DNA of 64,000 nt from Bilabrum cf. latius (Eukaryota). Of this stretch, positions 12,990-64,000 are shown in pieces. The notes under the pieces are model-generated. The model saw only the letters and a program-made list of their open reading frames with translations. It was not told the DNA's origin and did not search any database. The stretch lies in NCBI GenBank assembly GCA_965178125.1, contig OZ237743.1:310001-374000 (forward strand), written 5' to 3'. A program made the position numbers and the translations under genes. Position 1 is the stretch's first letter. Every line of letters begins with the position of its first letter.

Positions 12990-12990
12990 T

Positions 12991-17108: not shown

Positions 17109-17413
17109 TGCATTGTCTGAGTCAAGTAAGAATGTGTGTTCGCTAACATTCCCACGTCTTGAGAGTGGAACAAGTAATCCGGATGTTTTACGATCAGATT
17201 CCAAAGAATCCGGGAAAGCATGCGTGCAAAAGCGGCTCTCATGGAGCGGTTTTGCTTGCGGGGTGTAATTCTTGACCCAACTATCACCAAAGAATACCCC
17301 ATCCGCTGGTCGAGACCCATAGAACGAGCAAAAGGCCACCGGTTCACAACATACAACCACATGGTCTCTGGGTTTCAGTGCCACTGCGTGTTGCCGGGTC
17401 AGGCCAAAGCCTG

Positions 17414-23338: not shown

Positions 23339-23339
23339 T

Positions 23340-35754: not shown

Positions 35755-35755
35755 T

Positions 35756-40297: not shown

Positions 40298-40420
40298 GTC
40301 CGTGGACGCCCATCATCCGTCCGAGGACGCTGACCTCCCGTCCGTGGACAGCGAACCTTTGTCCGTGGACAGCGAACCTTTGTCCGTGGACGCTCACCAC
40401 CCGTCCGTGGACGCTCACTC
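40298..40420. repeat. Six 21-bp tandem units with a GTCCGTGGAC core in the outer element's terminal non-coding region
   Basis: Direct reading; the core is an interrupted palindrome GTCC-NN-GGAC. Confidence 0.9.
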
Positions 40421-40632
40421 CAAAAATTATACTTTTTTTACTCCATATTATTACTAAACATTACTAAACATCAAATAAATTATATTTGGTGCTTGGATTT
40501 GTTTTTTGGTGGCTAGAAACTCAGAAGCAGACCCAACAGAATCCAACCGACTATGACTAGTATTTTACAACCTCATTAAATTATACCTTGTAAAAATAAG
40601 GGGCTTAAAGAAAAAATATCTATCTATGTATA

Positions 40633-42236: not shown

Positions 42237-42890
42237 TTATAGACTCACACGAAGGGAAGCTGTTTTGACCTTGGGTCTCTCGTCAACTCCAGATTTTTTC
42301 AGCATTGATAAATTCATTTTTCTGACCTTTTTCACAGGCATACTATCACTTTGAGGCTCTACCTTCACACTATCAAACTTATAAAAATATTTTCTGTCTT
42401 TTCCTAGACCGTTTCGCACTCGTTTTACTCCAGCTTCCTTCATCCTCCTCCCAAATTTATTTTTGGTGATTGGACAATCGGAAAAACCACAGTATAATTT
42501 ATACACATCATCAACAACGATTCTTTTACTATCCGGTTGGAATTGCTCCAAAAATAAAATTACATCTTGTGTTTTATCGGGCTTAGCAGGGGTGGCACTG
42601 CCTTTATAAAAATTGAGATTGATGTATTTTTTATCTCCATCTTGCCAAGTCAATTCCCCGCTAGTTGCTGGATAGTAAACATCAGACATGAAGCAAGGAG
42701 TAAGAACAGTATATTTTGGAATATAGAACTGAATTTTCTCGAATGGTATCAACCTGATGGTTTGACCTAACACATCGTTAAAATATATTCCATCATAGGA
42801 GTAGTAAAAAAATTGCTTGATGTAGTCGTCGGGGCTTTTGGATAATTCTTTTTTTGCTTGTTGGTATTCAGATACTTTAAAGAAGCTCAT
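42237..42890 (-). CDS. 217-aa protein: helicase N-terminal-like domain plus D5-type winged-helix-like C-terminus, no ATPase core
   Basis: YIKQFFY..DGIYF, DVY, KYINL resemble the inner helicase N-terminus; DVYKLYCGF...TKNKFGRRMK. Confidence 0.6.
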   Translation of the reverse strand: MSFFKVSEYQQAKKELSKSPDDYIKQFFYYSYDGIYFNDVLGQTIRLIPFEKIQFYIPKYTVLTPCFMSDVYYPATSGELTWQDGDKKYINLNFYKGSATPAKPDKTQDVILFLEQFQPDSKRIVVDDVYKLYCGFSDCPITKNKFGRRMKEAGVKRVRNGLGKDRKYFYKFDSVKVEPQSDSMPVKKVRKMNLSMLKKSGVDERPKVKTASLRVSL

Positions 42891-44799: not shown

Positions 44800-45297
44800 T
44801 TATCCCATAAGATAAACTACAGGGAGTAATTTTTCTGTTTCGTCATCTTCCCATTTAACATCACATAAGGCTTTAGCGACTGTCTTTTTGTCTACAGCTT
44901 GAACAGATTTTTTCGTAGCTGAACCGTCAGAATGTGTGATTAGATAATCACCAGCTTTAATATCACCGCAAGTTTCTTTTTTAACTAATACCCCACCTTC
45001 ACCTACAGCATTAGCTTTTGCTTTTCCCTCTTTAGTTTTTCCAGCATAGACACCAAAAGGCAGAGCTACATCATCACATTTTTTTAATTCGTATTCGTTA
45101 TCACTGACAGAAACAGATTGAACCGATTGAATGGCTAAAATTGTTCCAAGCTCCAAGTCTTCCTCTAAACTTCCGATATGGGAGCCAGTGAAAGGGGTAT
45201 AAGTTCCTCCATCAAGTAAAGTACAATCACCCCTTAAGGTGAGACTTGCGTGATTACCGTTGTTAGAAAATTCAATGAACGAAGCATTAACACTGGC
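44800..45297 (-). pseudogene. 3' half of an outer-element fibre/chaperone-like gene split by the inner virophage
   Basis: Joins in frame to 63024..63254 (GKN|ASVNAS) giving 242 aa; FTGSH, AVGEG, AGDYL motifs shared with 55639..56814. Confidence 0.85.
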
Positions 45298-45302
45298 ATT
45301 CT

Positions 45303-45755
45303 GGGGGGGGTCAAGTGTGATGAGCGGGGCTCCACAGCAATATAGAGGAGACGCTTCGCGCCTCTCTACTCCTCTTAAGTCTCCTAGTAGAATTCCGTAG
45401 CGTGTCTCATAGTCCATGTCTCATAAAACAGACTACTTTTTATCTCCTACAAAGTAGGGGAATTTAAAGTTTATCTTTTATTTCTACTCCTATATTTCTC
45501 CTACAGCAATGACAGAGATGTTTTTATAAAAGTGTCAGAAGAAATTTGAAGAATCCAACGGCCTCCCAAAAACATCCCTGTGTTTGCTGTTAGAGGGATA
45601 CGGGAGCCGAAGGAACGAATTTGTCCCTACTTCGCAGGGCAAAACTCAATTTTAGACTTACTGAAGAGTTTCTACATCGGTCTCCATCTAGAGTCATGAC
45701 GGGAGCCGAGGGAACGTCTGGTCTTTCTCCGAAGCGAAGGTTCCCAAGACTTTCC
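45303..45755 (+). repeat. Left TIR of the inner virophage (begins G8-TCAAGTG)
   Basis: Reverse complement of 62571..63023 with about 4 mismatches seen. Confidence 0.95.
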
Positions 45756-45909
45756 TACAGCACTCCAGGTGTTCCCCAAGAAATCCCACCTTTTCCCCTC
45801 GGTTCTCGCACTGCGTGCTCCGCTTCCGAGAAATCCCAGTGCTTTCCATGCGATGCCCGCACTGCCTACGCCTTTCCCCACGGTTTTCCTACCGACCCCT
45901 ATAGTAAGA

Positions 45910-46113
45910 ATGGAAATAAAATTTATAAGCGATTCACTCTCTAAATTACCCAAAGAGGTTGACACGTTTCCTAACAAGAACACGAAGCGATTCTATCGTG
46001 CCCTTATGACTGATTCTCTTGTCAAAAAAATCAATCCAGTAATATGGAACAAACTCAAGATTAAATTGGAAACGTTTAGGGGGAACGAACGAGGAACGTA
46101 GTCAAACCAATAA
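45910..46113 (+). CDS. Small basic hypothetical protein, 67 aa
   Basis: ATG after TATAGTAAGA; one TAG, ends TAA. Confidence 0.5.
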
Positions 46114-46122
46114 AACCATACT

Positions 46123-47319
46123 TTAGTCGTTAGCAAACATTTTCCAAGCCATTCCCAAGGCTTTCTTGTTGCTTATCCCTTGTCCCCGGAGAATTGACGC
46201 CATTTTCATCACCCTTGAACGCTTTTCCGAAGACTTCCCTTTTCCAAACATTTCCACCCATGCTCCACTGACAGGGTCATCAACCACGGAATGAATTCCC
46301 TTCATGATAGGGACTCCCACGGTCTTTGTAGCCAAATCCCAGCCCTCCTTGAACTCTTTCCCAAAGTCCCTTTCTGTGTTCTACTTGTGTTTGGACTGAT
46401 TTTTCCTCAAAGCTTTCCTAATTTTAGGCGGTAGGCTGTCTATCTTATTTTTTTGGTCAAGCTTTTTCCCAAAAAGCTCACCTTTTCCAAATAGTTTGGA
46501 AGTCCAACCAGCTAAATCCGTAGCGACATTGGCGATTCCCTTGAACGCGGGGCTCATCTATGTTGCGATTTCAGCGACGGGCTACATAATGAACGACTCT
46601 AGGGAGGACGTTAAAAGCTTATTCACTTTTAGTATATCGCGGATGAACCTCTAGCAGTTCAAATCAAACGCTCTGTATTGGTAAAAATTGTATTCCCCTA
46701 TGCTTTCCAGGGTGTTTCCCAACAGTTCGTTTGCGGTTATAACACGGCCTTTCAAATCCACGTCCATCGTTTGACTGCGTTTATCCTTCTTATAGGTAAA
46801 CCCAACACTAACCCTCTCATTTTTCTCCATCACTAGCGGTTTTCCAGAGCCAATATTGGCGACAAGGTAGAGATGGAAATAGTCGCTAAATTTGTATTTC
46901 TTCTTCATCCGTTTCATCTTCCCGAAACTCATGACATTTAACAAGCGATTCAAACCAGACGACAAAGGAGTTCTTACAATCTTCAGGGAGAAAATCTAAC
47001 GATTTCCATACTTTTCCAAGGTTTTCCGAGTCGCGTTTGTGTGTCCCACGACAAGTCCGCCACACATACAACCACCCCTTTGAGTCATATATGAGTCCAA
47101 TGTATTGGATTGTATTTCTTTTTGTTTTCTAGGCCTTCCCCGATTAGATTTCTTAATATCCAATGATTTCTAGATGCTTTCCAGCATTTCCTTGGAGTAT
47201 GGGTGTTTTCCCTTCCAAGCCACCTAGGTTGCCTCATTAGGTTTTCTCACGGAAAGCATCGTTTTGATAAATCCCGTGTCTCGTTTGCCTCCTGAAAGCT
47301 CGTAAAATGACTCCGCCAT
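46123..47319 (-). CDS. 398-aa protein with an AT-hook-like RGRPRK and a permuted papain-like (PPPDE/LRAT-like) domain
   Basis: Single frame across TAGs; FHLYLV, MEKNE, YRAFDLNC[TAG]RFI (=NCQ); ends TAA. Confidence 0.65.
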
Positions 47320-47388
47320 GTTTAGTATAGATTTCCATACTTTTCCAACCTTGGGGTTTAAGTATATTTTAGCAGTCTATAGTATAGA

Positions 47389-47664
47389 ATGGTATTTGAG
47401 AGAGAACTGGAAGGATTCACATTTGTTGCCCCCTCCAAATAGAAAGGGAAGAAGTATGATGTGTATGACGAAGATGGTGAGTATATTACCAGCTTCGGAA
47501 GTAATTCCCACGAGCAGTATTTTGACCGTGTCGGGTATTATTCCCATTTAGACCACAAGGACGACGACCGAATGCGACGATTTCACCTTAGATTTAAAAC
47601 CCATAGCAATCCACCGAAGCCTAGAAGCCCCTTATGGTTTTCCAGTTATTATTTGTGGATATAA
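47389..47664 (+). CDS. 91-aa small protein of a type common in virophages/giant viruses (DUF5754-like)
   Basis: KKYDV..SFG....QY......DH.D..R..RF..R......SP.WFS..YLW; ATG after TATAGTATAGA. Confidence 0.65.
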
Positions 47665-47825
47665 ACGGTTTCCCCTTGGTTTCCCCTCGGTTTCCCCTCG
47701 GTTCTCGCACTGCGTGCTCCGCTTCCGACGGTTTCCAAGATTTCCCAGACTTTTCCCCTCGGTAAAAAGCTTCCTTGGAAAAGGGATATTTGATTTCCCA
47801 TTGAATAACTCTTCGTCTAAACAGC

Positions 47826-48446
47826 TCAGAGACGGTTTCCCAAGTCAAAGGTTTGCCGAATGAAGTTTTCCAACTGACTAAATGATGAAAACACCGTGTA
47901 GTGCGATTTGTCTAACTGGCTAATCAGACCGATTCGGCTTCTTTCCACTGCGTCCAAGATATCCTTGGACTCGGATTTAATATCCTCAAACAGGGAATGA
48001 CTTGGAACACACACGAAAATGCTTTCCAGCTTGAATAAATCTTTTCCAAGCTCAATATCACTACAGAAGACAATGATGCGACGACCTTTCTTGGTTAGCC
48101 AACGACTCTTCACGTCCTCATATACTTTCTTACAATGTCCGTAGTAAGTAAGACGGTGAGTAGACTCATCTCCGCTCTCAATCATTTTGTCTAACTTTCT
48201 TATTTCATCCGTTTTAAGGTGTGCCCTAACGACCTCGTCCAAATCCACTAGAAGTAGATTCTTATCCACGGATTCCAATTCCCTGACTAGGTGAGTCTTT
48301 CCCGCTCGTCTGGGAACCACTACACACACCTTCTAACGCTGATGGGGTAATTTAGTGGCCCATCCATACACACACTTGGATCCTTGGTAAGCCAAAGGCA
48401 CCATGGTTCCGATCACGGTCGCTCCAGTAAGAATTGCTGAAGCCAT
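47826..48446 (-). CDS. 206-aa P-loop NTPase/kinase-like protein
   Basis: VVVPRRAGKT followed by LLVDLDE; one TAG; ends TGA. Confidence 0.6.
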
Positions 48447-48503
48447 TCTGTCGTTTTATATAATATAAGACAACACAATATATTTATTTAGTCGCTAATT
48501 GAA

Positions 48504-50273
48504 TCACTGCGACATAATCTGGAGCAACTGATTACGAGACAACTATTTTCCTCCTGTTAAACCGGCGGCAGTCATACCGGCAGCAGTCATTCCTCGCCCC
48601 TTCTTTCCTTTCCCCATTCCCACCATCTTGGCGACCTGTGTTCCAGTCTATACTACATCACCCACGGTCTTGAGTAATTGTTTAGCTTTTCCACTCTTCA
48701 CATAATCCGCTACTTTCCTCAAAGCGTGCCTAATCTTGCGACCAAGATGCCTCCTCTTGCCACCATGAAGACCACTGATTTGACTCTCGTAAACCGTAGG
48801 AAGTTTCTGTGCGGAAAGCACATCAGCACGACTGATGACACCCTGGGAATAAGAATACTTCGTTCCCTCGGAAAGATTTAGAACGCCTTCATACAGTCCC
48901 ACGATCACCAGCTCTACACCACCTGCGGGGTAGTCCTCCAAGTCGTTGTTCTGAACCTGAGCGGTGATGGAAATCTCGTTGGAACCGTTAGAACCGTTCG
49001 TCTAATCCACATCAAGACTCAAGTCCTTGGCGGGATCAAGACAGATGAGCCCACCGCTTAATACCTTGTCTCCAAACTTTCTCATGACCCACTCTTCATA
49101 CTCCTGTTCCAAGCCGTTTGTTCTGGATAAGTCCCACAGTTGCTCTCGTGATGCGTCCGCGAGGAGACCCGAACGGTTATTCATCTGGACGGAAAGCGAT
49201 TGAATCGCTAGGAATGTGTTCCCCTTGTCCGTAGGAAGAGTGTTGGGCGACCGCCTTGCGAACACGAAAATGCGAGAAGGAACGGAATTGGAAAGCTTGT
49301 TGTTGTTATTTACCAGAGTAGCCGTGGCTCCGCTTGGAATGCCAGCACCATGTGCCTAGACATACTGCGTCATTTCAAAGACGTCGTAGGAAACTTGCTT
49401 GGGTAGGGTAAAGCCGACCTTGGGGGTAAGCATTTCAAGCATTAGCCTGGGGTTCATTACCTTGACATCCGAGACGCTCACGGAAGCCCCCTGAGGAAGA
49501 AAGTGAGACCAAAGGGTATTGCGAAGATTGGCAAAGTTCACATCTAATTCAAGGGTTTCCAGACCGAATAAGGCGGGTTGCTCTTCCTTGGTTTCATAGT
49601 GGAAAGGGGGAACCATAATACATTCGGCTACGGTGAACCTCACGGTCCGCTGTGCCGTGCCTGGACCCTATGCTGCTGCGGCGGGAACTGGGGTATTGTC
49701 TGGGGTGTTCTCCAACTGGAAATACCCGACACCACGCCCTGGACTCTGATACATACCGTCAGAATACGACCGAAGAGGGTTATTGGAAGCAGCATTCATC
49801 ATTGAATAACTGGGACAATTATCACGGCGATATACGGAATTCAGGCAGTTTACCTTGTGGACTTCGTCGTCAAGACAGTGATTGACTACATCCATGATTT
49901 GAGCGTTATTCTGGGTAAAGCGAACGGAATCAAGCGTTGCGGTTTGGGTGGCGATAGAACGGTTCAAGGGGTATGCCCTGGGGGCGTAAGTGTCTTCTCC
50001 AAATGGAACAACTGTTGCTGCGTTCGTGTTGCTGAAGTCAAGAGTTAGTTCAAAGGTTGCGGACATATACCCACGGCGACTGACACCGACCCCTGAGGGA
50101 ATGGAAAGCGACCAATTCACGCCCGAGGAATAGTCTCCGGCAGACCCTGAAGGTGCGTAGGAACGGAAGGTTCGGTTGGCGTATCCAGTATCCACGGCGT
50201 AGGGTTTGGCGGTGATGTCAAGGGAGGCGGGTTCAATTTTGACTGGCTCCAATGCGTGAATATTGAGGCTCAT
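48504..50273 (-). CDS. Virophage major capsid protein, 589 aa
   Basis: Four track ORFs in one frame joined by TAG; YAV..G, PS...VSRR, AYPL, GL..LEL..NF, VPSRIFVFAR, NNRSGLLA; basic C-tail after LHGG; ends TGA. Confidence 0.9.
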
Positions 50274-50391
50274 TGTCTGTTATACTATACACTCCGTTTT
50301 AATTTCTGATATTCCTTTCAAGAAATATCAAACAAATCATTTCCAATGTATTCCAATGTTTTCCAATGTTTTCCAATGCTTTTCTAAAGGA

Positions 50392-51501
50392 TTACCCGTG
50401 TCGGGAAAACTTAAATTTCACCGATGCGGAACCATGCCGAAGATATAGGGGGTGCGTCTCTCCGTAGGAATCTTTCCAATACAAATTAAACTGTAGCGTG
50501 TCAATACTAGAAGCGTTGAGAAGATCTATGGTGTGTTCTATCTTGGGCTGATACTGGAGAACGGCCTGGTTAATCATCTGGGAATCATCTAGGACACAAT
50601 CCATATCCACCAAAACACTTTCCGTGCCTCCTGTAGAACTAATGGACTAATTCGTGGAAAATCCAAAGGGAGTTTTGGCTGATACCCCCTCGCTTCGCAC
50701 TGGAAGACTGCTCGTTGTGAAAACGACTCCGCGGAACACCTGGAAATGTGCTAGACTGCCCCTATCCTGGGTCATTTTGAGTCTGTAAGGGGACTAGGGT
50801 ATAGTTTCCGTGTATGTGATTGGTGCGAATCCATCATCATCGTTTTCCACCAAATAGTTTGTGCCTAGGGATTTGAAAAGAACGGAGGAAAACACGTCTG
50901 GGTTCGTGTCTTGGATTCGCTGGACTGGGAAACCGCTTAAAAGTTCTCCCAATGGTTCATTCAATACTAATCTGTATTTCTGAGAAGGTTGTCCTTCGTG
51001 ATAGCTGGAATCCGCGAACAGGGAAAACTTTCCGTCGTCATAGGTAAGCGTTGGCGTGGTTGCTACTGCTGACTAGGGAAACTTCTCCATGGTCTCATTA
51101 AAGAGACTGACAAAGTGTTCTATCGTGTATAAATAATAATATCTTGTAAATGCCTGGGGGGACTACCAACTCGGCTACGGTTCTGCGATTAACTAGGGTT
51201 TCCAAATGATGGGTTGCGTTCCAATCATGCTCCCGTCCTCCACGTCTTGGATGCTGATTCTGTAGATGGTTTGGTCTGGATTCTTGCTGGGATTTGTGGA
51301 AAGGTCTATATCTATGTGGGGAATCCATACGGGAATTGTATTGGTGGATATGGTGAATCGTTGGACGCTCAATTTGTAATCCTCTACATTTCCGCTTAAG
51401 ATTGGCTTTTTCCTCACCTCATTGTATTGGGCGGGCTGATAGGAGTCTTCATTATTGCGTATATTTGCGTTGATATAGAAGTAGTCAGGTTGTCTAGACA
51501 T
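50392..51501 (-). CDS. Virophage minor capsid (penton) protein, 369 aa
   Basis: YNEVRKKPIL...DYKLSVQRFTI...IPVWIP, YYYLYT, VVFTTSSLPV, YWKD.YG...L....SASVKF.F. Confidence 0.9.
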
Positions 51502-51732
51502 TTACTATACTATAACTTTTTAAGAAAAAGTAATCCTTTTAAGAAAAGAATAAGCAAAAGAGCGGAGCGCGCTTAAGCGCGAGCATCTTGACTAAAAACA
51601 GTGAACGGGAGGGGTTTTCATTTCAACCCTTTGGGAAATGGTCGGAAGTCTTGGGAAATGGGTAGGAAACACTTGGGAATTGCTAAAAAACATTCTAAAG
51701 ATATACTAAGTGGTTTTTCTGAAAAAGTAACT

Positions 51733-52263
51733 ATGGACTACGCCCTAAGTGATACAGATGTAAGGAATATGTGCGGGAATCCGCCCAGAGTGAAGGGGTT
51801 CAAGGCGTGTGCCGTCTCCATTATACCATATGAGAACTTGGAAAGGGTGGAAAGCATAGATAGAATCGTTTCACCGTCCAAGCCTTGTATTTTGTTGTAT
51901 TAGGAAAGTCCTAATTCAGGTCATTGGGTTGCCTTGTTTCGTCGTGGGAAAACCCTGTGTTTCTTTGACCCCTACGGCGTGAAGCCCGATATGTAGCAGA
52001 CTCTAATGAGTTCTAAAGTGCGGAAACGATTCTATGAAAACCCACACCTCGCTAGGCTCATGTATGAATGTCCTTACTCTATAGATTACAATTAGTATCC
52101 TTTCCAAGCCGATGGAGACGACATAGCAACATGTGGGAGACACTGCGTGGTCCGCCTTTGGAATCGTGGGAAAAGCACGGAAATGTATGGGAAATATGTG
52201 GAAAAGGTGTGTAAATCATAGGAAATAAATCCGGATGAATTAGTGTTCTTATTGACGACTTAA
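51733..52263 (+). CDS. Virophage maturation cysteine protease, 176 aa (alternative start 51658)
   Basis: SGHWVAL, FFDPYG, FQ.....ATCGRHC; four TAGs; ends TAA. Confidence 0.92.
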
Positions 52264-52337
52264 AGCGTTTTCCATTTTCGTCAAAACTGTATGCGTCCAG
52301 TGAAACACTATTATCGTTATCTATACTATAGAAGGAA

Positions 52338-53249
52338 ATGCCCTCATTCACTTGGACTCACACTTCAGACACCATACCAATTGCGAAAGACACAGAATAG
52401 AACAGGATATTGTTTCTAGATAAGAGGGACGACCATGAGACGAAGTTTGGCGACAACGACGACATGACAGCGGAAGATTTAGAGCTCACGGAAGTTCTTA
52501 AGAATAAAGTGTCAATGAAGCGTTTGGATTTACTCCGCAAACATTTAATCCAGTCTGTAGAACCTTTGGATAGCGATATGAAGCGGTTCTATGACTTGGC
52601 GTAGGAAAAGAAGCGAAAGGAAGTCAGTCTGCGGAAAGGACAATTTGACCCAATGCCGAGTGGGAAAGGGCGGGAAGTGATATATATTACTGCTCCAAGC
52701 GGTGCGGGGAAGTCTACATGGGTTTCCAAGTATTCCAGGAACTATTCCAGACTTTTCCCAGACCAAAAAATTGTCTTGTTCTCACGCTTGGAAGACGATG
52801 AGGTGTTAGACGCGATCCCGTCTCTCGTGAGAATCCAATTAGATGAAGAATTAGTAGAGAATCCCATTGACATTCACACCGAATTAAAGGACTGTCTGGT
52901 GATTCTAGACGATATTGACACGGTGAATGACAAGAAAATCCGTTTGGCATTGGAATAGTTGTAGGACGACTGTCTGTAGACCGGAAGGCACTCAAACACT
53001 TCTTGTTTAATTACCAGTCATTTAAGCACCAATTATAAGAGCACCAGGATAGTGTTAGCGGAATCCCACAAAGTGGTTATTTTTCCAAGGGCTTCCAGCG
53101 CTCACTCTTTGCGTTATTTGTTGAATAAATACGTTGGACTTGAGAAACAAGACATTTCTAAAGTGATGAAATTACCGAGCCGTTGGGTGTGTATCCATAG
53201 GAATTATCCTAGATATGTTTTAGGCGAGAGGTAGGCATACATAGTGTAA
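52338..53249 (+). CDS. FtsK/HerA-type genome packaging ATPase, 303 aa
   Basis: YITAPSGAGKS, LVILDD, L[TAG]TGRH, SRWVCI...YP; ends TAA. Confidence 0.92.
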
Positions 53250-53257
53250 AAGCTTTT

Positions 53258-53725
53258 TCAAAATAAATTTTGCTCCTTTACATATTTACTTGCTTGTGGA
53301 AGAGACATGCCAGTCTGCTCCATTACCGCCTTTACTACTTTATTCCTTTGTTTCATTTTCTCACTTATTTTCCTCTTACGCCCTTCCGTGGGCTTTTGGG
53401 AAAAGCTCTTACGTTTTCCAGAACCGCCCAGAGATAATCCACCGATATTGGATAAATCCTCTACTGGGGTTCGGAGATTGTCAAAACTGCCGACATGAAA
53501 AGGGGTTTTCTCTTGCTTTCCCGCCAGTTTCTTCCAGATCTGTTTGCCCTTGGCGACTACACCTTGTCCCAAGGTCTTAAATATGAACTTCATCGCCTTG
53601 GCATCATCCGTCCATTTTCCGCCTTGGAGATTGGGGGACACTTGGGCGATTCTCTCGTTGGCGTCCTTCTGTTTCTGCTACACTAGCTATGCCGTCCGCT
53701 TCCTAATGTATTCGTCAATATCCAT
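53258..53725 (-). CDS. 155-aa basic putative virion core/DNA-binding protein
   Basis: Several GG motifs; C-terminal RNKVVKAVMEQTGMSLPQASKYVKEQNLF resembles a motif recurrent in virophage proteins. Confidence 0.65.
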
Positions 53726-53934
53726 TATAGTATAGAATGAGTTTTTTTTAAAGAAATATGCTCTTTCATTGTTTTCCATTGCTTTCCATAGATTTCCAAA
53801 CATTTCCCTCGGTTTTCCACCCATTTCCAATCCGCTTGAAAAACGCTTGGAAAACAAGATGCTCGGCCTTTGGCCTCCGCTCTTTCCATTCTTTTCAAAA
53901 GGATCTTTATTAAAACGTAATCTTATAGTAAAGC

Positions 53935-55278
53935 ATGTCATTCCAATCACCAAACGTCCAAGCACTCATACAACAAGCCCTTGGAAAACAGCTAGACTGG
54001 GCGAAATTGTAGGATTTAGAAGCAAAAGACACCGCCGACCTGGAAAGCGAATACGCTTCCTATATTAGGTAGAAAAGTAAAATAGAACGATTGAAGGAGA
54101 GTGGAAAATATGGAACGCCTTCTATGAGGAAGAAAGCGGACCAAACCAACTAGGAAATCGTGGGGAAATCCATCGCTGGGATCATGAAGGGAGTGGTTGA
54201 GGGAGAGCTGGGAAAAGCGCGGAAAGCGACGGAAGCTTTAAAACAGTTCTTGGGAAGCATCAACGTGAGTGGGGAAATGAAGGAATACTTGGGGAGACAA
54301 ATTGTAAACATAGCGACCCTTGCGAGGAAGGGATACGCAGGCTTGCGTAAAGTCCCATCAGAAGATATGAAAATCTTGAATAACCTTAGAGAAATTGTTT
54401 AGAGTTCAGCAGGATAGCCGCATACTATACCACGAGGACTTCGTGAAACACCAGAACGGACTGTTGAGAGAACACCGCAGTTGCGAGAAGAAGAGGCAGA
54501 AAGGGACGACGAAGACAACGACGAAAGACCTGAGCCGACAAGAACGAACAGGCAATTGCGAACCATCCTAAAAGATATGGGAAAAGCAAATATTGATACA
54601 AGCCAATTACTTCGTTTAAGAGACGCAAAAGACCAGCGACTAGCAGCCCGCATTTGGGACGCAAACAGAGACCAAGGGATAGAGTATGCTTTACAATTCG
54701 CCAGCGGCTCCACGGTATCACCAGCCAAAACACGAGCAAGACGACAAAAGGAAGCAGACATTCCACTGGAAGACCCGCCAGCGCAGCCTCAACCACAAAG
54801 AAAGTTCCGACCACAGAAAGAGATAGAGAAAGATATGGATAACGCATATCAGGCAGGATTCATTACAGAGGATGAAGTTAGACTATTCCAGCGAATTAAA
54901 GATTCCAGCGACAGGAAGGTGGTGCGAGCGTTTTGGGATAGGCATAAAAATTTACCGCTTAAACGAGCCATTCAAATTGTAGACCCGCAGTTGTGGACTG
55001 AAGAAGAGGCGGAAGTGAGACGAATGTAGCGGGAGGGACGGGCTCCAAGTTTCGCATCACCTATACAGAAAGGAGCCAAGAAAGGAGCCAAGAAGGGAGC
55101 CAGGAAAGGAGCCGTGCGAGGGCGCGGACGATTAAATCCATAGGAATCACACCTTTTCCAGACCGCTAAGAATGTTTCCAAGAAGGTAAAGGGAGCGACC
55201 AAAGACATTCAAGACTAGGTTGCGGACGAAGTGATTTCTCTACTTAAATCTACTGCTATACTATATAGCACAGAATGA
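53935..55278 (+). CDS. 447-aa charged/coiled-coil hypothetical protein with KGAK repeats
   Basis: One frame across several TAGs; ends TGA overlapping the next ATG. Confidence 0.7.
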
Positions 55279-55487
55279 CGGAAGAATGGAGTTACAATAA
55301 ATACTATTACGAGAAAAATAAGGAACGCTTAAAGAAAAAGGTGGAGTGCGGGTGCGGTTCCAAAGTAGCTCGCTACAATTTGTAGCACCACAGGAAAACC
55401 AAGAAACACATGGCGTGGGAAACCGATGAAACCAAGCAGGAAATCCAACGACTCAAGGACGAGTTAAAATGCTTGAAGCATGAATAA
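55275..55487 (+). CDS. 70-aa zinc-finger protein
   Basis: YYEKNKE...VECGCG......NL[TAG]HHRKTKKH. Confidence 0.75.
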
Positions 55488-55638
55488 AAGAGCTTTTTAG
55501 GAAAAACCTCAGCCAAAAAGAATTCAGAGAGTCCTTAAGTAGTTTTGGTTAAGCAAGATGCTCGGCCTTTGGCCTCCGCTCTTTTCATTCTTTTTGAAAG
55601 GATAATCTTAAAAGCTTACTATATATATATATAAACGT

Positions 55639-56814
55639 ATGTCCGTCTCTAATCTATTAGTGCCGAACTCATATAGGTTGTATTGTCAGAGTATAACACC
55701 CGTTGAAGGTGGTGGAGGTGGCGGAACACCGAGTCTATCAAGTGTTCTACAGGTGGGAAATGATGCTGGAAATACTACAATCACAAATGTTGCCCTTCCA
55801 GTCAATAACCAAGATGTTGCTACGAAGCAATATGTGGATTCCACGAGTGGCGGAGGAGGTGGTGGAGGAGTAACACCAAACCTAACTGCTGTGCTGACAC
55901 AAAGTGGAGACGCGGGAAACCTTACCATATCAAATCTAAAGTCTCTGCGAATGGCAACAGGAGGCAACGGGGAAATCCAAACACCTTTTTCGGGGAACGC
56001 CTCTTTGGGATACACCCGTTAGACAGATGAAAGTGCTTTGTTTGAATACTATGCGAACTATGGAACGGGAAGTAAGAACCCTATGACACGACTTTATACA
56101 GGAAACGGGAACGAAGATGGAACGAACGCCGAATTTATGGTGTATGGGACAATTGAGTCTAACAAAGGGGTCATGGGGGGTATGACGCTCACAGGTGCGA
56201 TTGACGGAGATAAACAAAGAGAACAACCCACCATCACACTTCAAACCACACCAAGTCCTCTCAAGAACCAAATAGAGGGAAGGAATACAAATGGAACTCC
56301 AGCAAACAACTTCATTCAATTCTGGATTGATGATGGTAGTGGAAATCTGGTAGGCACAGCACAGATACGTGGAGATGGAACTATGTTCGTGTAGAATGGA
56401 GTTGTTCCTTTCACGGGAGCACACGTGGGAACGCTGGGAAGCGGTCCGAAACCAAAGATTGGGTAGGTTATGTCAGTAAGAACTGCGACGGTAAACGATG
56501 TGTCTAATTGCGAGTTTTCATTCAGGGTTTGCGATCACACAAGCGTTCCATTTGGAGTCTTTAGCGGAGAGGGAAAGGATGGGGAAATACGGGTGAATTC
56601 CGTGGGAGAAGGTGCTGTCCTTTGTCTGCGAGATGACAGCGTTCCTATTTTGGCAGGGGACTATCTGTCTATCTCAAGAACGAAAAAAGGATATGTGGAA
56701 AAGTCCAGGAGTTCTCAATTTTCTAAATGGGTCGTTGGGAAAGCAATCGTAGATGTTGAGTGGGACGACGAGGAGGAGGAAAAGTTAATTCCAGTGGTAT
56801 ATTATTGCGGATAA
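55639..56814 (+). CDS. Fibre-like protein with a C-terminal chaperone-like domain, 391 aa
   Basis: VLQVGNDAG..ITNV..P...QDVATKQYVD repeat; FTGAH..VGEG..AGDYL..PVVYYCG; three TAGs. Confidence 0.7.
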
Positions 56815-56848
56815 ACGAAAAAAGCGGAGACTATAGTATATACACAAT

Positions 56849-57373
56849 ATGAGTCTTTCCAACATCCTTCAAGACAACAGTTTCGCACTCAAGTGTGCTT
56901 CTCTCACGACTGAAGCAATCTATGGACTACAAGGAAAGGATTTGACGATTCAAACCACAAGGGCGGATTCTGGCGACGATGGATATGCTGTGGTGCTGAA
57001 AGCGTCAAATTCTACCACTACTGAAACGTGTGATATTCGGTTTGGAAATGGCGAGCTTGGAACAGCCTCGGCTCGTATTTACGCAAGGCAAGGCGGACAA
57101 ACTCAACAAGATGACATAGATGGGTCGTATTTCCTTGGTGGGTATTGTGTTCTTTCCAAAGGGGGGGCGGGTCTTGGTCTTCCAGTAAGGACTGCGACCT
57201 AGATTGGAGACTCCACGGATACTTGTAATAAAACAGGTCGTCCAGAAGACACAAAACGAGCGGGTGTGCTTCTGTTTAATTCTACAGATTCTATTGTGAT
57301 GGTTTCCGTAGGTGATGACTCTACGAGTGCTTGGAAGGAAGTGGGTGGAACAACCACCATAACACCATCATGA
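56849..57373 (+). CDS. Second fibre-like protein, 174 aa
   Basis: N-terminus MSLSNILQDNSFALKCASLT parallels MSVSNLLVPNSYRLYCQSIT; one TAG; ends TGA. Confidence 0.55.
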
Positions 57374-57467
57374 TGTATCTCCAAAGAACCCTAAGGGCTT
57401 TTTGTAGAATACCTATCCGGTAGTTCAATACAATCACTATTGTAAGGAAATCATTCTATTGACTCCT

Positions 57468-59312
57468 TCACTATAGGAACACCTTTTTCTTCGCGTGAGT
57501 AATCACACACTCCCCCTGAGTCTCTAATTTCCACTCTCCGAGGTTTTCCGAGAGTTTCAAGGGGATTTCCACATCGCTCACAAATCCGTCCGTATTCACA
57601 TAGTGGATTCTATCTAGGTGCGGTTCTATCACCTTGGAAAGTTTCCGCCGACCAAATGCTGTTAGGAAAGGGCCTAGACGAGCATAGCAAGTTCTATAGG
57701 TATATGTTTGTGTCGCTAGAATGCCTTTTACCCTTCTTCCACCGTCCTACATGAAGGCGTCCTTAAGCGTTCTGAAGTCCACAACTTCGTCGTCGCTGGA
57801 AATGGTCTTTACTACCTAATTCTTTTGACACAACGCACCCCATACAGAATTAAGCAGTTGTTTTGCTGTTTTAAATCCTTTCTTTTTATATCCAAAGAGT
57901 CGCTCCACCAAACCCTTGAAGAGACTGACTGCCTTGATTCGCCTGTCTTTCTCGTAGATTAGGGCATTCGCCTGACCGTCTTGAATGATGGAAAAGGTCG
58001 CCCCTGTTTCCTACGCCCTTACTATATCGTGGTGAGTCCAATAATCGTTTTTGCGTGGCTGGATAAGCTTGGGATTTAGGTGTTCCACCTTTACCCTGTA
58101 AATCCCGAATTTCCAACCGAAGTCCTCTGGGGTCTGGGAAAGCGTCTGGAAATCTCCGGAAAGGATTGGAAACTACATCTATGACTTCAATATGCTTGGA
58201 TAGAAGCTATTCATGTCGTATTGGTATGCTTTCTCCAGTTTCGTGTCGTTGTTCGCCCAGTTCAGTCCGCCACCAGACGCCTTGGAAATCCACTCCGCCT
58301 CTTTGCGCCCCAAAGGCTCGGCTGGGAAAAGCTTGGAAAACTTGGAAAAGTAATGCTTTACGTAGTAGGAAGGTCTATATCCATATTTAGATAGATCCAT
58401 ATACCCACCAGTCTCTTGAGAGAGTGTCTCGGCGTCCTCGTGGATTCGCCTCCAGGTCGGTTCTAGGTCTTCCTCTACAGAGACTTTCCAAAGACTCTTT
58501 GTATGTATATCTGTTCTTAATCGTGATTCAATATGTCTAGTTGCTCCGTCATACATGATATATTCGCTTTCCGCCTTTTTCCAGTAGGTGATTAGGCGAA
58601 CTGACTCCTTCGTGGGAATACACATTAAATCTTTCTGGGATTCTGGGGAAATGAACTCGTAATGTCCGTTTGTAAGGGAGATGCTCGCCAAGGGGTCGTA
58701 AGACTTTCCAGATGTGTAGGAAAAGTCTCCAGTCAGATGAATGCGGATCTTCAGGTAATCCTCTACCTCGGGAATTCTCTTGTAGTGGATTGGTTCGCTC
58801 CGTCCTAGGTTCAGTTGGGACTTTAGCTGGGCGGGGGAAATCCTATGGAAACCACTTTTATACTTGCCATTTACCTTCTTGTTTCCTCTAAATCCTACTT
58901 GGAAGGGAAAAGCCTTCTTTAGGGCGTTATACAGACAGTCGTTATTCTCGTCCTTTCCGCCCCTCGGATTGTCCTTGGGAAGCAAAAGAAGTTCAAATGT
59001 GTTTAGTCTGCGGTGTTCCTACTCATCTACATCCTCGTCTTCGTATCCCTTCCACAGAGAGGTAGTTTCCTTCAAGTCTTCCGTGGTGATCCAAGCACTC
59101 CTTGTCCGCCACCCTTCCTCCACAAAATTGAGGTTTATCTTGAACTTGTATCCGTCAAAGGGATTCTCTCCGTCCTCGTCGTAGTCCTTGATAAAATCCA
59201 TCACATCCTTTACAGTGATTAGCTCGTCCGCATGGAACCTAACGCTCCAAATTGGAACGCCGTTGAGTCTCAAGTTGGTCCTCTCGGGTTCGCCGAAATC
59301 AATCTCAACCAT
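57468..59312 (-). CDS. Protein-primed family B DNA polymerase, inner virophage, 614 aa
   Basis: YDMNSFYP, KQLLNSVWG, YVNTDG, LGEWKLE; collinear with 42989..44767; ends TAG-TGA. Confidence 0.92.
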
Positions 59313-59453
59313 TCTAGAGTATATAATATACTATAGACTACCAAATTATACTTAATGTGTGAGCCTCACGATGCCCTTCCGTGGGCAGACTACGGGTGAA
59401 ACGAGAAGCAACGCTTCTCCGCTATGGGTTTTGCTGTCCTTTTCTGAAAAGGA

Positions 59454-61136
59454 TTACGCCTCGTCAATTTTACACAGAGACAGTTTCAGAGATTTCCCAC
59501 GCTTTCCAAGGGGTTTTCCTTTGGGTTTTGGTGGGTTTTCCTTCATCCATGCGGTGATTGCTACACATGACTCGGCCGACAGTTTCTTCTATGTTTTCCT
59601 GTGGAAAAGCTAATTGTCGTCCATTTCCCTCTCCAGTTCCAACTCTTCTATGCGTTCCGTTTGCTCCTGTAGTTTCTTCTACATTTCCTATAGTTGTTCT
59701 CGTAGCAGTTCCACCTCGGTCTTGGCTTTCTCTACCTCTGCTTCTTGGCGGAGAGCTTTGAACTTCTTCCGAAACCCTTCCAATAGGTCTTTGTGCTTAA
59801 CCTTAAACTCTTGTTTTCTCTGTGAGTTCATCGTGGAATACACACCTACTTCCGCCAACTGTTCCTTAATCTTCGGCGTGGAGAGGTTCTTGATTTGTCC
59901 CTTCAGTTCGTCCTTTAGGTAGTTGCGGAAGGCCATCACGGAAATGTGGAAATCTTTTCTCTCGTCCAACCACTCTTCCTTTAGCGTCCGCAGGATAGGG
60001 TGTGCCCCTTGTAAAATCCCCTTATGGAAATTCTAGGATTTCGGAGCGTATAGTCCCTTGAACTCAGGTGAGTCGTCGTAGACTTTCGCGAGGTATAGGA
60101 AGAACGCCCTCGCCACCTCTTTGCTCTCCGTTGCTTCCTTGAGTTTCTTAAAGTATTCCTTGTCGCCTTTCCTGGATGTGTTTACATCCAACACGCAATA
60201 TCTGCGGATTTCCTCTGTAATTTTGATGGGTGCGTCGTTCGTGTCAATAACGAGGTTGAAGGTGTTGGGACGGCTCTCGGTCTTGACGAATTTCTCATTA
60301 CAGGAAAAGGTCTTCTCGGTAATTAGATTGCGTAGGGTCGCCTACATAGCGTTCCATCTAGTATTGGAAGCTTTTGGAATCTCATTGAAGTTCACAAGTA
60401 GTTTTCCATCTAGGATAGAGTTGAAGGCATCGGGCTGAAGCATGGCGTTCGTGAGCGTCTGGAGCGTCAGGGTGTATCCAAGGAGTTTTCTCATAAGGAA
60501 CGTAATGATGATAGATTTACCAGTTCCCTACGGAGACTTTAGATACAGGGCGGTCTGGAGTTTTTCCCCGCCTACAATCACGTGTGCCAGCCACTTCATC
60601 ACGAAGTCAAACTGGGTGTCGTCCTCGCTCGTCCAGACCTTGTGGATATGTTCGGAAATACGAATCACGCCTTCCCGTGCGTCTTCAGGCACGTCTTCTA
60701 GGTTTCCGCAGTTTTCCCGAGTCATCAGGGGTTTTCCCATGAGGTTAATCGTTTGCTTCTCGTAGTCCACAGTGGGTGCGTTGAATCGTCTCACCACCCG
60801 AAAAACATCTGTGTTCTCGTTAAAGAACCAATCACGAGCAGACCAATCCTTCACCTTCCTATTGTTTACCATTCGGTAGATACAGTGTCCGCCAATTAGG
60901 TAGTTCTCGCTGATGTTTCGGTTCGCCAAGAACTACCAAACTGGTTTCTAGGGATTCTCGTCGGAAATGTTCTAGCGGTTCAGTTCATCCCCCTAGAGGA
61001 AATACACGCCTCCACCTTGGTCGTGGGTGCGGTAGAAATATTGTTGAATGTATTTGATACAATCCTCCTGATTTCCAGTATCACAGAGTTGCTTGAGGGT
61101 TCTGGCGGAAAAGGCAACGGTTGGCATCTGAGACAT
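59454..61136 (-). CDS. SF3 helicase, inner virophage, 560 aa
   Basis: LYLKSP[TAG]GTGKS, LLVNFNE, VIDTN, EIRRY; ends TAA. Confidence 0.9.
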
Positions 61137-61347
61137 TTTCTGTTGGTTATACTATATACTACCAAAATATACTTAAGTGCTGATGCGTCAATTTTCCAGA
61201 GAGTCATCTGAGACATTTCCAGAGATTTTCAGAGGTTTCCAAAGATTTCCAAGAGATTTCCATAGCTTTCCAACGATTGGAAAAATATAGGTAGTGCGTT
61301 AGTCTTAAGGTATGGAATTTTCCCCACTCATCTTCATTGTTCGCCAC

Positions 61348-62427
61348 TTATGTCAGGTCTATTGGGGCTATCCCAAACTCCGCTGGAAGTTGCTTTTTGG
61401 CGTCTTCTAGGGTTTCCCACGTCCAATCCTTTTCGTTTGGAAGACCGTCCCATTCCACTTTGACTCTCGTTGGTTCTCGGGTATGGACTTTCTTCATATC
61501 CTTTCTGCGGATTGCCTTGGTGTTGTGGAGCTCATCGTCGTCAATTATCTATAGTTCTTCCTTTGTGTAGGCTACTTTGTGTTTCTAATCCACGACATAT
61601 AAAGGGGGCTACCCTGGTCGCAGAAGCACCTTGGTAATTTGTCGCTCGGTCGGGTCGTAGCGTAAATCACTGGCTCTAAATGAACCCATGAGTTTCTTGG
61701 AGAGTTTGTAGGCCTCTCTAGGTTCTTCCAATGGAATCCTAACAATTGTTCCCTTTTCCAAGATATCGCAAGCCTTTCCCCTACAGTGGGTCGCTCCAAA
61801 GTCAGTCGTGGGAATGGGTGGGTTTTCTTTGAGTTTCTCTTTCTGGAATTCGTTGTAATCATTGACAATCGTAGGTATTAAATCCACCCAACGTCGTTCT
61901 ACTTTTCCCTTGGCTATTTCCTCTACATTCTGGACGGAATTGATGACGATTCCAAACAGCTTGTTTAGGTTTTCCACCACGGCCTGTTGTTTGTGTCGCC
62001 CTGGCTTGTTTCGGCGCACGTAAATAGGCCTTTCCTATTCTTGTAGGTGCCTTGCCAATTCGTTAAATTCATTTCCGTTGTCTATTTCTAGCCTCACGGT
62101 GGGTTGCTAGACATTTCCCCGCATGAATATCTAGAGAGCTTTTTCATAGGTTTCTTTCTGGGTTTTCTTCAATAGCGGTTCTGCGTCTATTAATTTGGTG
62201 TGTAAATCCACAGCAGTTAAAAGGTATTTATATCCTTGGTCGTTCGGCAATTGGAGTAAATCCATCTGAACGACTGCGTTTGGCTGCGGGACGTTCACCT
62301 TGGGTCTGTTCTTGCCCTTGGGTTTCTTTGGGCGTTTCATTAAATTGCGGATTCTAGAGTCCTAGGGTATGTGAACCCCTTGGAGAACATATTGGAGAAC
62401 ATTCGGGTATTCTTTCAGGATTTCCAT
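61348..62427 (-). CDS. Retroviral-type (rve, DDE) integrase with a C-terminal chromodomain-like region, 359 aa
   Basis: QMDLL..YKYLLTAVD, IDNGNEF, QAVVENLN, VKVEWDG.P...WTWE; seven TAGs; ends TAA. Confidence 0.92.
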
Positions 62428-62570
62428 TTACTATAAGGGTCGGTAGGGAAACCGTGGGAAAATCTTGGGAAATGGTGGGATACCTTGGGAAACACCAGGG
62501 ACTTCTTTGGAAAAGGTGGGATTTCTTTGGATGCTGTATGAAATTGATTGGAAACCGAGGGGAAACCTTG

Positions 62571-63023
62571 GGAAAGTCTTGGGAACCTTCGCTTCGGAGA
62601 AAGACCAGACGTTCCCTCGGCTCCCGTCTTGACTCTAGATGGAGACCGATGTAGAAACTCTTCAGTAAGTCTAAAATTGAGTTTTGCCCTGCGAAGTAGG
62701 GACAAATTCGTTCCTTCGGCTCCCGTATCCCTCTAACAGCAAACACAGGGATGTTTTTGGGAGGCCGTTGGATTCTTCAAATTTCTTCTGACACTTTTAT
62801 AAAAACATCTCTGTCATTGCTGTAGGAGAAATATAGGAGTAGTAATAAAAGATAAACTTTAAATTCCCCTACTTTGTAGGAGATAAAAAGTAGTCTGTTT
62901 TATGAGACATGGACTATGAGACACGCTACGGAATTCTACTAGGAGACTAAAGAGTAGTAGAGAGGCGCGAAGCGTCTCCTCTATATTGCTGTGGAGCCCC
63001 GCTCATCACACTTGACCCCCCCC
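62571..63023 (-). repeat. Right TIR of the inner virophage
   Basis: Reverse complement of 45303..45755. Confidence 0.95.
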
Positions 63024-63254
63024 ATTCTTTCCTAAGTAAATTCTTCCATTACCGCCATCACTGGTAATGAATGGTACACCTTTTCCGTCAGCTTGACTGA
63101 AAGAAATTCCAGCATTGCTTGCCAAGTCTCCATTACCATCAAGTGTTGATATTAAATTAAAACGATTAGTATTTATAATACTATGACCTTGGCAATCTAA
63201 TTGTTTGGCTATATTTAAATAACCGATGGTTGAAAAGGGCATATTATCCGACAT
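63024..63254 (-). pseudogene. 5' half (77 codons) of the split outer-element gene
   Basis: MSDNMPF...RIYLGKN then the TIR; continues at 45297. Confidence 0.85.
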
Positions 63255-63283: not shown

Positions 63284-64000
63284 TTAAGGTGGAGCCGATA
63301 TGGGGTCAAGTGGTGTGGGTGGTAAGTTGGCAGCGGTTATATTCCCCATAACTACTAAATTACCATTTGTTAAGTTCAGGCGGAATAAATTAAATTGACT
63401 TAACTTATCAGTTATGCGGATATGGTTATCATCATCACATTCAATGAAACATTTTATATCACCATTGTTCTGAATAGCAATTTGAGAACCGGCTTGAAAA
63501 GTTGTAGCATCAATAAAATTGGCATTTACTATATTATTATTGCCAGCATCATCACCAACAGTTAAAACTTGGGTTAGATTCTGAGGACTTCCACCTCCTC
63601 CCGATTGTGAATCAACATAAGCTTTTGTGGCTACATCCTGAGCATTGGTAGGATTCCCTATATTTACGATTGATTGACCTCCTCCGTCATTTCCTTGATT
63701 TAATACTTGGGTAAGATTCTTATTAGAAGCATTATCAACATATGATTTAGTTGCGGCATCCGTTGAATCTGAGGGTTGTGAGAGGTTTTTGATTTGCTGA
63801 TTTCCCGCATCGTTTCCAACGGTTAACACTTGGGATAGATTCTGAGAACTTCCTCCGCCACCCGATTGTGAATCAACATAAGCTTTTGTGGCTACATCTT
63901 GGTCATTAGTTGGGTCATTGACATCAGTTATTTTGTTATTTCCTGCCGAATTTCCAACGGCTAACACTTGGGTTAAATTTTGATTGGTTCCTCCGCTTCC
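63284..64000 (-). CDS. Outer-element fibre-like repeat protein (5' end outside window)
   Basis: Tandem QNLTQVLxVGNDAG..I.....PT..QDVATKAYVD..SGGGG repeats; ends TAA. Confidence 0.75.
   Translation of the reverse strand, partial: GSGGTNQNLTQVLAVGNSAGNNKITDVNDPTNDQDVATKAYVDSQSGGGGSSQNLSQVLTVGNDAGNQQIKNLSQPSDSTDAATKSYVDNASNKNLTQVLNQGNDGGGQSIVNIGNPTNAQDVATKAYVDSQSGGGGSPQNLTQVLTVGDDAGNNNIVNANFIDATTFQAGSQIAIQNNGDIKCFIECDDDNHIRITDKLSQFNLFRLNLTNGNLVVMGNITAANLPPTPLDPISAPP

Follow-up and report, generated by a model that had tools for sequence, protein, structure and literature searches.

A virophage in which TAG very probably means glutamine, apparently integrated within a gene of a second virus-like element in Bilabrum cf. 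latius

The closest described counterparts of the locus reported here are mavirus and the endogenous mavirus-like elements (EMALEs), integrated virophages of 15-20 kb with terminal inverted repeats (TIRs), an rve integrase, a protein-primed PolB (pPolB) and short target site duplications (TSDs); EMALEs are multi-copy with variants, may interrupt genes and are themselves targets of mobile elements (PMC8547959). In Cafeteria burkhardae they integrate without sequence specificity, with TSDs mostly of 3-5 bp (PMC8547959), and the nested parasites described in them are Ngaro retrotransposons; retrotransposons nested in virophages as well as in polinton-like viruses (PLVs), some within fibre genes, are also on record (PMC8547959; PMC12220804). 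In Halocafeteria, five PLVs and nine virophages are embedded in other viral elements (10.64898/2026.07.28.741278). Changes of the genetic code have been met in this field as well: endogenous polinton-like elements of Streblomastix strix use the TAA/TAG=Gln code of their host, from which the authors infer a long association (PMC10120064), and an ochre-suppressor tRNA occurs in one virophage clade (PMC6905037). Here we analyse a stretch of 64,000 nt from Bilabrum cf. latius (assembly GCA_965178125.1, contig OZ237743.1, positions 310,001 to 374,000 of the forward strand), called the window below. It is highly probable that, in this eukaryotic chromosome, a virophage with TAG as a glutamine codon was integrated by rve-type transfer inside a coding gene of a second, pPolB-encoding element, here called the outer element; most likely it landed unspecifically and persisted.

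The traits listed above for mavirus and the EMALEs are found again at this locus; in those elements the nested parasites described are retrotransposons, whereas here a viral element, and not a host gene, is interrupted, and reading the insert requires TAG=Gln. The Halocafeteria arrangements resemble it in having virophages inside virophages or PLVs, marked by TIRs and TSDs, with shared genes and in repeat-rich regions; that host has 47% GC against about 57% here, and the part of the paper available to us makes no mention of genetic code, stop codon or TAG (10.64898/2026.07.28.741278). With Streblomastix strix the locus has in common that small DNA viruses integrated in a protist follow the non-standard nuclear code of their host. 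In that species both TAA and TAG mean Gln and the elements are polinton-like, belonging to the Metamonada group of the major capsid protein (MCP) (PMC10120064), whereas in the window TAG alone is reassigned, TAA ends seven of 13 genes, the insert is a Sputnik-type virophage and its neighbour element is free of TAG. The literature covered, supplements excepted, yielded neither a virophage lineage in which only TAG is reassigned to Gln nor, next to such a virophage, an element free of TAG. Nesting is already in print; the TAG=Gln recoding of a virophage is the new part.

The limits of the insertion were obtained by reading the junction letters directly. On the left, ...GGCATTCT of the outer gene and the duplication meets GGGGGGGGTCAAG, where the element opens with a run of eight G (45303-45310); on the right, CTTGACCCCCCCC, which closes with eight C (63016-63023), meets ATTCTTTCC. 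The pentanucleotide ATTCT stands outside both ends. The fused product cannot distinguish a TSD of 5 bp (ATTCT) from one of 6 bp (CATTCT), and the symmetric G8/C8 ends favour 5 bp. A repeat finder placed the TIR arms at 45302-45755 and 62571-63024 (454 nt, 99% complementary), and a base-by-base count gave 453 nt, four of which are mismatched (69, 75, 181 and 395, counted from the ends). When the element and one ATTCT were excised in silico, a single minus-strand open reading frame (ORF) of 242 aa was obtained, which starts with an ATG at 63254, stops with a TAA at 44800 and reads ...RIYLGKN/ASVNASF... across the joint (slash); the remaining two frames reach at most 39 aa. The gene had been broken after codon 76 of 242, upstream of its C-terminal domain, and the DNA expected at the uninterrupted site is ...GGCATTCTTTCC... 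An exact 5-bp match of the flanks has a chance of about 0.0016 (computed from the composition of about 33% GC), and chance is untenable because the ORF is restored and an empty-site homologue exists. This homologue, the public protein P0006 (238 aa, from a contig of 1,378 nt), is colinear with the restored product and has no gap at the joint (LGKN/AGINASF against LGKN/ASVNASF). Of the traits of rve-type integration, a D,D35E triad, TIRs and a short flanking TSD are present.

These results bear out what an earlier note on this DNA, made from its letters alone, had proposed: an exact ATTCT duplication at both junctions, an uninterrupted 242-aa ORF upon removal of the element, and a duplication of 5-6 bp as befits an rve integrase, for which the insert now provides a 5-bp duplication together with an intact rve gene. 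The uninterrupted relative that the note had thought informative is P0006. A fibre-like protein of the virophage itself was also considered as a joint-bridging homologue and was rejected, its similarity beginning only at the joint (aa 77). Two ORFs run across the new borders: a chimeric one of 205 aa (44800-45417, minus strand) takes its ATG from the left TIR and then contains the whole C-terminal domain of the split gene, and the upstream gene piece extends five codons into the right TIR (63006-63254, 82 aa).

The other half of the finding concerns the genetic code. With the standard code (table 11), the longest virophage ORF, stop to stop, has 279 aa; if only TAA and TGA terminate, ORFs of 625, 591, 572, 474 aa and so on appear, and 13 long genes occupy 83% of the length. 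Within the 4,914 codons of these genes TAG occurs 69 times in frame, TAA and TGA not once, and the genes end seven times in TAA and six times in TGA; TAG makes up 28% of the Gln codons. Decaying genes would collect all three stop codons, not one of them alone. The pattern recurs in all six related metagenome loci (L001-L005 among them), whose MCPs are 41-69% identical to that of the window. Ten orthologous genes were compared with those of L003, and the 52 window TAG sites that could be placed face TAG 13 times, Gln 12 times, Lys five times and other residues less often; conversely, 32 TAG sites of L003 face Gln 10 times and Lys five times in the window, the remainder being others. Gln is the commonest non-TAG partner in this comparison (22 of 71 cells), with Leu and Tyr absent and Trp found once. 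Divergence between the two sets at the three codon positions is 0.32, 0.21 and 0.60 over 3,593 codons, as expected of coding sequence under purifying selection. A looser all-against-all count gave CAG in 60 and CAA in 50 of 275 non-TAG cells, the pairs being non-independent and some of the ORFs antisense. Two TAG sites of the integrase, 273 and 293, coincide with conserved columns in which 20 and 18 of 30 homologues, respectively, have Gln.

Judged from these comparisons, TAG is almost certainly read as Gln, and TAA and TGA terminate. The same meanings (TAG as Gln, TAA and TGA as stops) make up NCBI genetic code table 15, which matches the virophage, its relatives and the host genes described below, the codon meaning being deduced from alignments. 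Other assignments fared worse: TGA or TAA as a sense codon gave no coherent gene set, and taking both TAA and TAG as sense merely joins the helicase and pPolB frames (1,239 aa), which we take as a coincidence, given that TAA closes seven genes. These two genes (57468-61136, minus strand) lie in one frame, parted by a TAA and 47 codons. ARAGORN found no tRNA gene and Rfam no match in the window. A blastn search of the six metagenome loci with the window TIR returned nothing, and no inverted repeats were found within L001, L003 and L004.

The DNA to the left of the viral region follows the same code. It is a tandem array with repeat spacings of 10,361-10,369 and 12,400-12,434 nt and internal sub-repeats of about 2.5 kb, in which the third unit is rearranged. 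ORFs of 1281, 812, 699 and 677 aa are open there only with TAG as sense, including a subtilase-like ORF of 1281 aa with 10 TAG (Pfam Peptidase_S8), present twice and found again as diverged halves in the third unit, and a kinase-like ORF (Pfam Pkinase). The ORF of 812 aa (27707-30145, 6 TAG), also in the third unit, resembles a reverse transcriptase (RT) with a sub-threshold RVT_1 match. Together the host ORFs contain 32 TAG in 4,927 codons, or 15% of their Gln codons, and between host paralogues TAG pairs with CAG 19 times and with CAA five times among 55 non-TAG cells, which are not independent. By its codons, the virophage uses the code of its host. Such sharing is understandable because a virophage borrows the transcription machinery of a giant virus but is translated by the cell.

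The product of the interrupted gene can be approached through P0006. A profile-free search with this protein returned 145 proteins (E up to 1e-3), which range from about 80 to more than 4,000 aa and share its last ~160 residues as their C-terminus; among ten of them that were scanned, one carries a PB4_spike domain and one a Phage_Tail_Tip fibre domain. Modelled with AlphaFold from 54 aligned sequences, P0006 gives a confident structure at residues 111-238, where the predicted local distance difference test (pLDDT) exceeds 94, and a poor one over the N-terminal 110. In Foldseek the confident domain of 128 residues matched PDB structures of two kinds, the base by which the phi29 head fibre gp8.5 binds the capsid, and capsid decoration or cement proteins of several tailed phages (6qyy, 6qvk, 9kmg, 8hdt; E 1.4e-4 to 9e-4, 12-19% identity, target-normalised template modelling (TM) score up to 0.61). 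In gp8.5 this base is N-terminal, whereas the domain is C-terminal here. The same domain of the interrupted gene is 36% identical (E 7e-27) to the C-terminus of the 391-aa protein of the virophage. On the strength of the model, the product of the split gene can fairly be read as a fibre or decoration protein of the outer element, anchored to its capsid. The earlier note had called it a probable virion fibre gene; the fold of the C-terminal domain agrees with this in part, and 'fibre' alone is slightly too specific.

The proposal that the disrupted gene is part of a second virus-like element, also made in the earlier note, is supported by a pPolB that aligns with that of the virophage over its full length (28% identity, E 7e-61), by a D5_N helicase and by fibre modules. 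Homology with the host repeat ends after 39684, and foreign DNA starts with a C9 run at 39685. Between the outer and the inner helicase no pairwise similarity was detected. The fibre-repeat ORF at the edge of the window shares 59% identity over 69 aa with the N-terminal repeats of the inner 391-aa protein. By these genes, the outer element is placed in the polinton-like/virophage world, as a relative with which the insert has genes in common. Its visible ORFs are all still open and contain no in-frame TAG, against 17 CAG and 65 CAA, in 1,809 codons; out of frame, 63 TAG occur in the same genes over 3,606 positions, and all five visible stops are TAA. If TAG made up 10% of the outer Gln codons, none in 82 would have a probability of about 2e-4. 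The left terminal region contains five 21-bp tandem repeats (40297-40433) with the palindromic core GTCCGTGGAC; its opening C9 has the opposite polarity to the 5'-G8 of the virophage, and its 44% GC contrasts with 33% in the genes downstream. Homology of this terminus to the inner TIR was considered and rejected, the two sharing only a homopolymer run and one 11-mer (E 0.09).

That the insert itself is a virophage, as the earlier note held, is established by Pfam matches to its capsid proteins and its integrase (Table 1). The MCP, of the double-jelly-roll type of virophages, also matches PDB 3j26 (Sputnik V20; 6.1e-25, residues 39-497) and has the database homologues P0001-P0005. It is far closer to Sputnik V20 than to PDB chains 6g43 and 6g45 (1.3e-3 and weaker), which we take to be the mavirus MCP. 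The D,D35E triad of the integrase (D56, D116, E152) is invariant in all 31 aligned sequences, the window protein and 30 homologues, and the family profile matches the integrase core of prototype foamy virus (PFV) at 7.4e-11. For the 206-aa ORF, the best conserved gene, Pfam gave only sub-threshold AAA matches. The true start of the ORF of up to 474 aa probably lies further in; an ORF of 91 aa (47389-47664, plus strand, 1 TAG), with TATAGTA ahead of it at 47378, overlaps its implausible N-terminal extension and is probably a 14th virophage gene. The 303-aa P-loop protein is by its motifs a probable packaging ATPase. No relative was found in IMG/VR by MCP alone, MCP alignment or outer pPolB, and GTDB genomes scanned with the MCP alignment gave no match.

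The near-palindromic motif TATAGTA(TA) is enriched: of 20 copies of TATAGTA in the window (1.93 expected), 16 are within the virophage, and seven of the 13 virophage genes have it no more than 100 nt upstream on the coding strand. It lies 2-20 nt before most virophage starts (e.g., at 50283, 51503, 53924, 56832, 59329, 61150 and 62429), and further copies precede the pPolB gene of the outer element (42980) and lie close to where its split gene begins; inner and outer element may answer to one common transcription system. Short-repeat arrays rich in TTTCC/GGAAA, such as TTGGGAAATGGTGGGATACCTTGGGAAA, are scattered over sub-terminal and intergenic virophage DNA and may be binding sites of a replication or regulatory protein.

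Table 1. Coordinates of the features in the 64,000-nt window; virophage genes are given with TAG as a sense codon.
Feature	Position	Strand	Remarks
Host DNA, eukaryotic, tandem array	1..39684		GC-rich (~57%); period ~10.36 kb; third unit ~12.4 kb
Left terminal non-coding region, attributed to outer element	39685..40632		948 nt; C9 start; 44% GC
D5_N-type helicase/primase-like protein, 521 aa (outer)	40633..42198	+	Pfam D5_N 1.3e-6; 0 in-frame TAG; stop TAA
217-aa ORF (outer)	42237..42890	-	no Pfam family
Outer pPolB, 592 aa	42989..44767	+	nearest atlas clusters DNA_pol_B_2, score 0.97
Interrupted gene, 3' part, 165 codons + stop	44800..45297	-	86% identity to P0006 residues 73-238 (aligned piece 44803-45300)
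Left TSD copy, ATTCT	45298..45302		junction letters read directly
Inner element, complete virophage	45303..63023		17,721 bp; ~45% GC; TAG very probably read as Gln
Left TIR	45303..45755		begins 5'-GGGGGGGG
TTTCC/GGAAA arrays	45760-45900, 47660-47770, 51630-51660, 53780-53820, 62450-62590	both orientations	
ORF of up to 474 aa	46123..47547	-	8 TAG; conserved in L001-L004 (47-57% identity)
206-aa ORF	47826..48446	-	1 TAG; P-loop-like motif; best conserved gene, 74% identity to relatives
MCP, 589 aa	48504..50273	-	5 TAG; Pfam Sputnik_MCP_1st 8.1e-23, MCP_V20_C 9.4e-25, both above cut-off
Minor capsid (penton) protein, 369 aa	50392..51501	-	6 TAG; Pfam V18-19 1.4e-12, 47.6 bits vs cut-off 27
201-aa ORF, in the position of the virophage cysteine protease	51658..52263	+	4 TAG; 47-65% conserved in relatives
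P-loop ATPase, 303 aa	52338..53249	+	6 TAG; Walker A APSGAGKST, Walker B LVILDD
227-aa ORF	53258..53941	-	2 TAG; no function assigned
447-aa ORF	53935..55278	+	8 TAG; charged, low-complexity; no function assigned
Inner fibre-like protein, 391 aa	55639..56814	+	3 TAG; N-terminal repeats T7-tail-fibre-like
174-aa ORF	56849..57373	+	1 TAG; no function assigned
Inner pPolB	57468..59312	-	Pfam DNA_pol_B_2 9.1e-8; homologous to outer pPolB
DUF5906/VapE-like (superfamily 3 type) helicase, 560 aa	59454..61136	-	11 TAG; Pfam DUF5906 1.5e-15, VapE-like 3.1e-6
rve integrase, 359 aa	61348..62427	-	7 TAG; Pfam rve 1.3e-9
Right TIR	62571..63023		ends CCCCCCCC-3'
Right TSD copy, ATTCT	63024..63028		junction letters read directly
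Interrupted gene, 5' part, 77 codons, ATG at 63254	63024..63254	-	75% identity to P0006 residues 1-73
Fibre-repeat protein, at least 238 aa visible (outer)	63284..64000	-	runs past window end; Phage_T7_tail match sub-threshold

Support from reads was taken from Logan contigs of four public runs, which come from one sample of one study and possibly are the data of the assembly itself. Over 44100-45331 and 62995-63629 the contigs of the four runs agree with the window at every letter and do not branch at the joint. No joint that skips 45303-63028 was seen among them; such contigs drop rare variants, so this is no proof of absence. When contig depths are summed, the virophage reaches about three times the value of its flanks (in run X1, roughly 83-149 against 33-38), and many variant contigs of the virophage occur with 90-99% identity, which indicates that the family is multi-copy in that sample. 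A contig found in runs X1-X4 follows the right TIR to 62989 and then takes a different end of 24 nt, also with a C-run, which suggests another copy or a subtype of the family with a different terminus.

Several observations weigh against the reading of a virophage with TAG=Gln inserted into an outer viral element. Each junction contig enters the element by just 29 nt, just below the 31 letters set as the criterion for bridging; such ends fit k-mer contigs that halt where a multi-copy repeat starts. All junction contigs derive from the single sample, maybe the one assembled, and neither an empty-site allele nor a single read across the full 17.7 kb was seen in the contigs of the four runs. As to the virophage genes, the 201-aa ORF has no Pfam match and spurious WD40 matches in the PDB, leaving the family of the putative capsid-maturation cysteine protease unconfirmed, and so is the FtsK/HerA packaging family of the 303-aa ATPase, for which Pfam gave sub-threshold AAA_22/16/14 matches only and the PDB was uninformative. 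The outer element, whose capsid genes, integrase and right end lie beyond the window end at 64000, may be a virophage or a PLV, and the region 39685-40632 could be its TIR or the remnant of a further, third element. With regard to the code, five of the seven TAG sites in the integrase fall in variable or gapped columns; L001, L002, L003 and L005 are near-identical, and part of the evidence for Gln is to that extent not independent; and P0001, P0002 and P0152, of the same lineage, were evidently called with TAG read through, so that their Gln may itself be TAG.

Of the other explanations for the nesting, an assembly artefact, in which repeats were mis-assembled and the virophage joined into the outer element, deserves very little credence. 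The family is indeed multi-copy with variants, and poor assembly of endogenous viral regions is documented (PMC10120064); yet mis-assembly would not yield a flawless 5-bp duplication, full TIRs on either side and an ORF that can be restored precisely, and the k-mer contigs of four runs carry both joints without mismatch or branch. A reversed order of events is improbable, though to a lesser degree. Here the virophage would have entered a free or replicating outer genome, for example in a co-infected cell, and the composite would have been integrated afterwards. The window dates neither insertion: the outer ORFs being all open, the outer element is not visibly older, and between the inner TIRs 4 of 453 positions have already diverged. 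On the other hand, a composite of at least 24 kb with a broken fibre or decoration gene would have had to replicate and integrate, whereas the multi-copy family offers a chromosomal source for a local hop, and nested chromosomal arrangements are frequent in another protist (10.64898/2026.07.28.741278). Whether the site was chosen is a separate matter. Tethering of the integrase by a chromodomain to silenced chromatin, the place of endogenous viral elements and repeats, or selection for disabling the virion gene of a competitor, would both make the position more than accidental, and we hold this to be possible but doubtful. As motives the earlier note had offered competition or a preference for AT-rich targets. 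In its favour, the C-terminus of the integrase family profile matches HP1/CBX chromodomains (1.4e-9 and weaker), PF00385 (Chromo) is present in 13 of 30 homologues, and the locus is repeat-rich, with the tandem array, the RT-like ORF and two viral elements. It is an established idea that chromodomains steer retrotransposons to heterochromatin; PMC8547959 lists Gao et al. 2008 among its references. The integrase of the window aligns at its C-terminus with the chromodomain of its family but is divergent there: it has no Pfam Chromo match at E up to 1 and lacks the first aromatic (cage) residue of most relatives. Only one insertion site is visible for the virophage family, and Cafeteria EMALEs, often in host exons, have no site specificity (PMC8547959). 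Unspecific insertion followed by retention is the most likely explanation of the site, being favoured by this lack of specificity in Cafeteria and by the frequent nesting in Halocafeteria.

The remaining objection, namely that the element has decayed and its in-frame TAGs arose by nonsense mutation, or that TAG stands for a residue other than Gln, is very unlikely. It could appeal to the lack of a tRNA gene in the window and to the many TAG sites in variable columns, at which Gln is no commoner than Lys, Glu and other residues. Against it stand the 69 TAG with neither TAA nor TGA, a pattern shared by all six relatives and the host genes, the retention of TAG itself at 13 of 52 sites in L003, the predominance of Gln over Leu, Tyr and Trp among its replacements, and the two conserved Gln columns of the integrase.

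For the preferred course of events, a virophage that entered a resident outer element, the following mechanism is the most likely. The insertion has the anatomy to be expected from strand transfer by the rve integrase, with a staggered cut repaired to the 5-bp duplication ATTCT. The G8/C8 homopolymer ends could serve protein-primed replication by sliding back, in analogy to PRD1 and phi29, and TATAGTA would be the virophage promoter, presumably read by a helper giant virus, while host ribosomes would make the virophage proteins. The lineage would long have been adapted to hosts of the TAG=Gln code and be inexpressible in a standard-code cell. The insertion would have been non-specific and would have persisted since hitting an existing parasite costs the host nothing, with C-terminal chromodomain tethering to silenced chromatin as a possible contribution; the interrupted copy of the outer gene would now be inactive.

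The nesting alone is a clean, well-resolved further example of its kind, standing out by the exact TSD, the restorable ORF and the uninterrupted homologue. A TAG-using virophage beside a TAG-free element in one host, in addition, makes testable how a change of the code shapes the entry of viruses and hyperparasites. C-to-T drift in AT-rich DNA should have given the outer element many TAG codons, and none is visible. In one reading it is a recent immigrant from standard-code hosts; in the other, it is kept code-neutral, with TAA stops only, to move between both codes. Tentatively, we suggest that the codon regimes of the two hyperparasites nested in this chromosome differ, and that stop-codon reassignment may act as a measurable barrier or filter in networks of host, giant virus and virophage. 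If this is true, a code-adapted parasite is seen here in the act of disabling a code-naive one, and the virophage lineage would be locked to TAG=Gln hosts, its genes meeting 69 premature stops in a standard-code cell. Any giant virus it exploits would have to be translated under the same code, and the prediction follows that in the helper giant virus, too, TAG is read, or at any rate tolerated, as Gln. This lineage, including the six metagenome contigs, would be shredded by standard gene callers and virus-detection pipelines.

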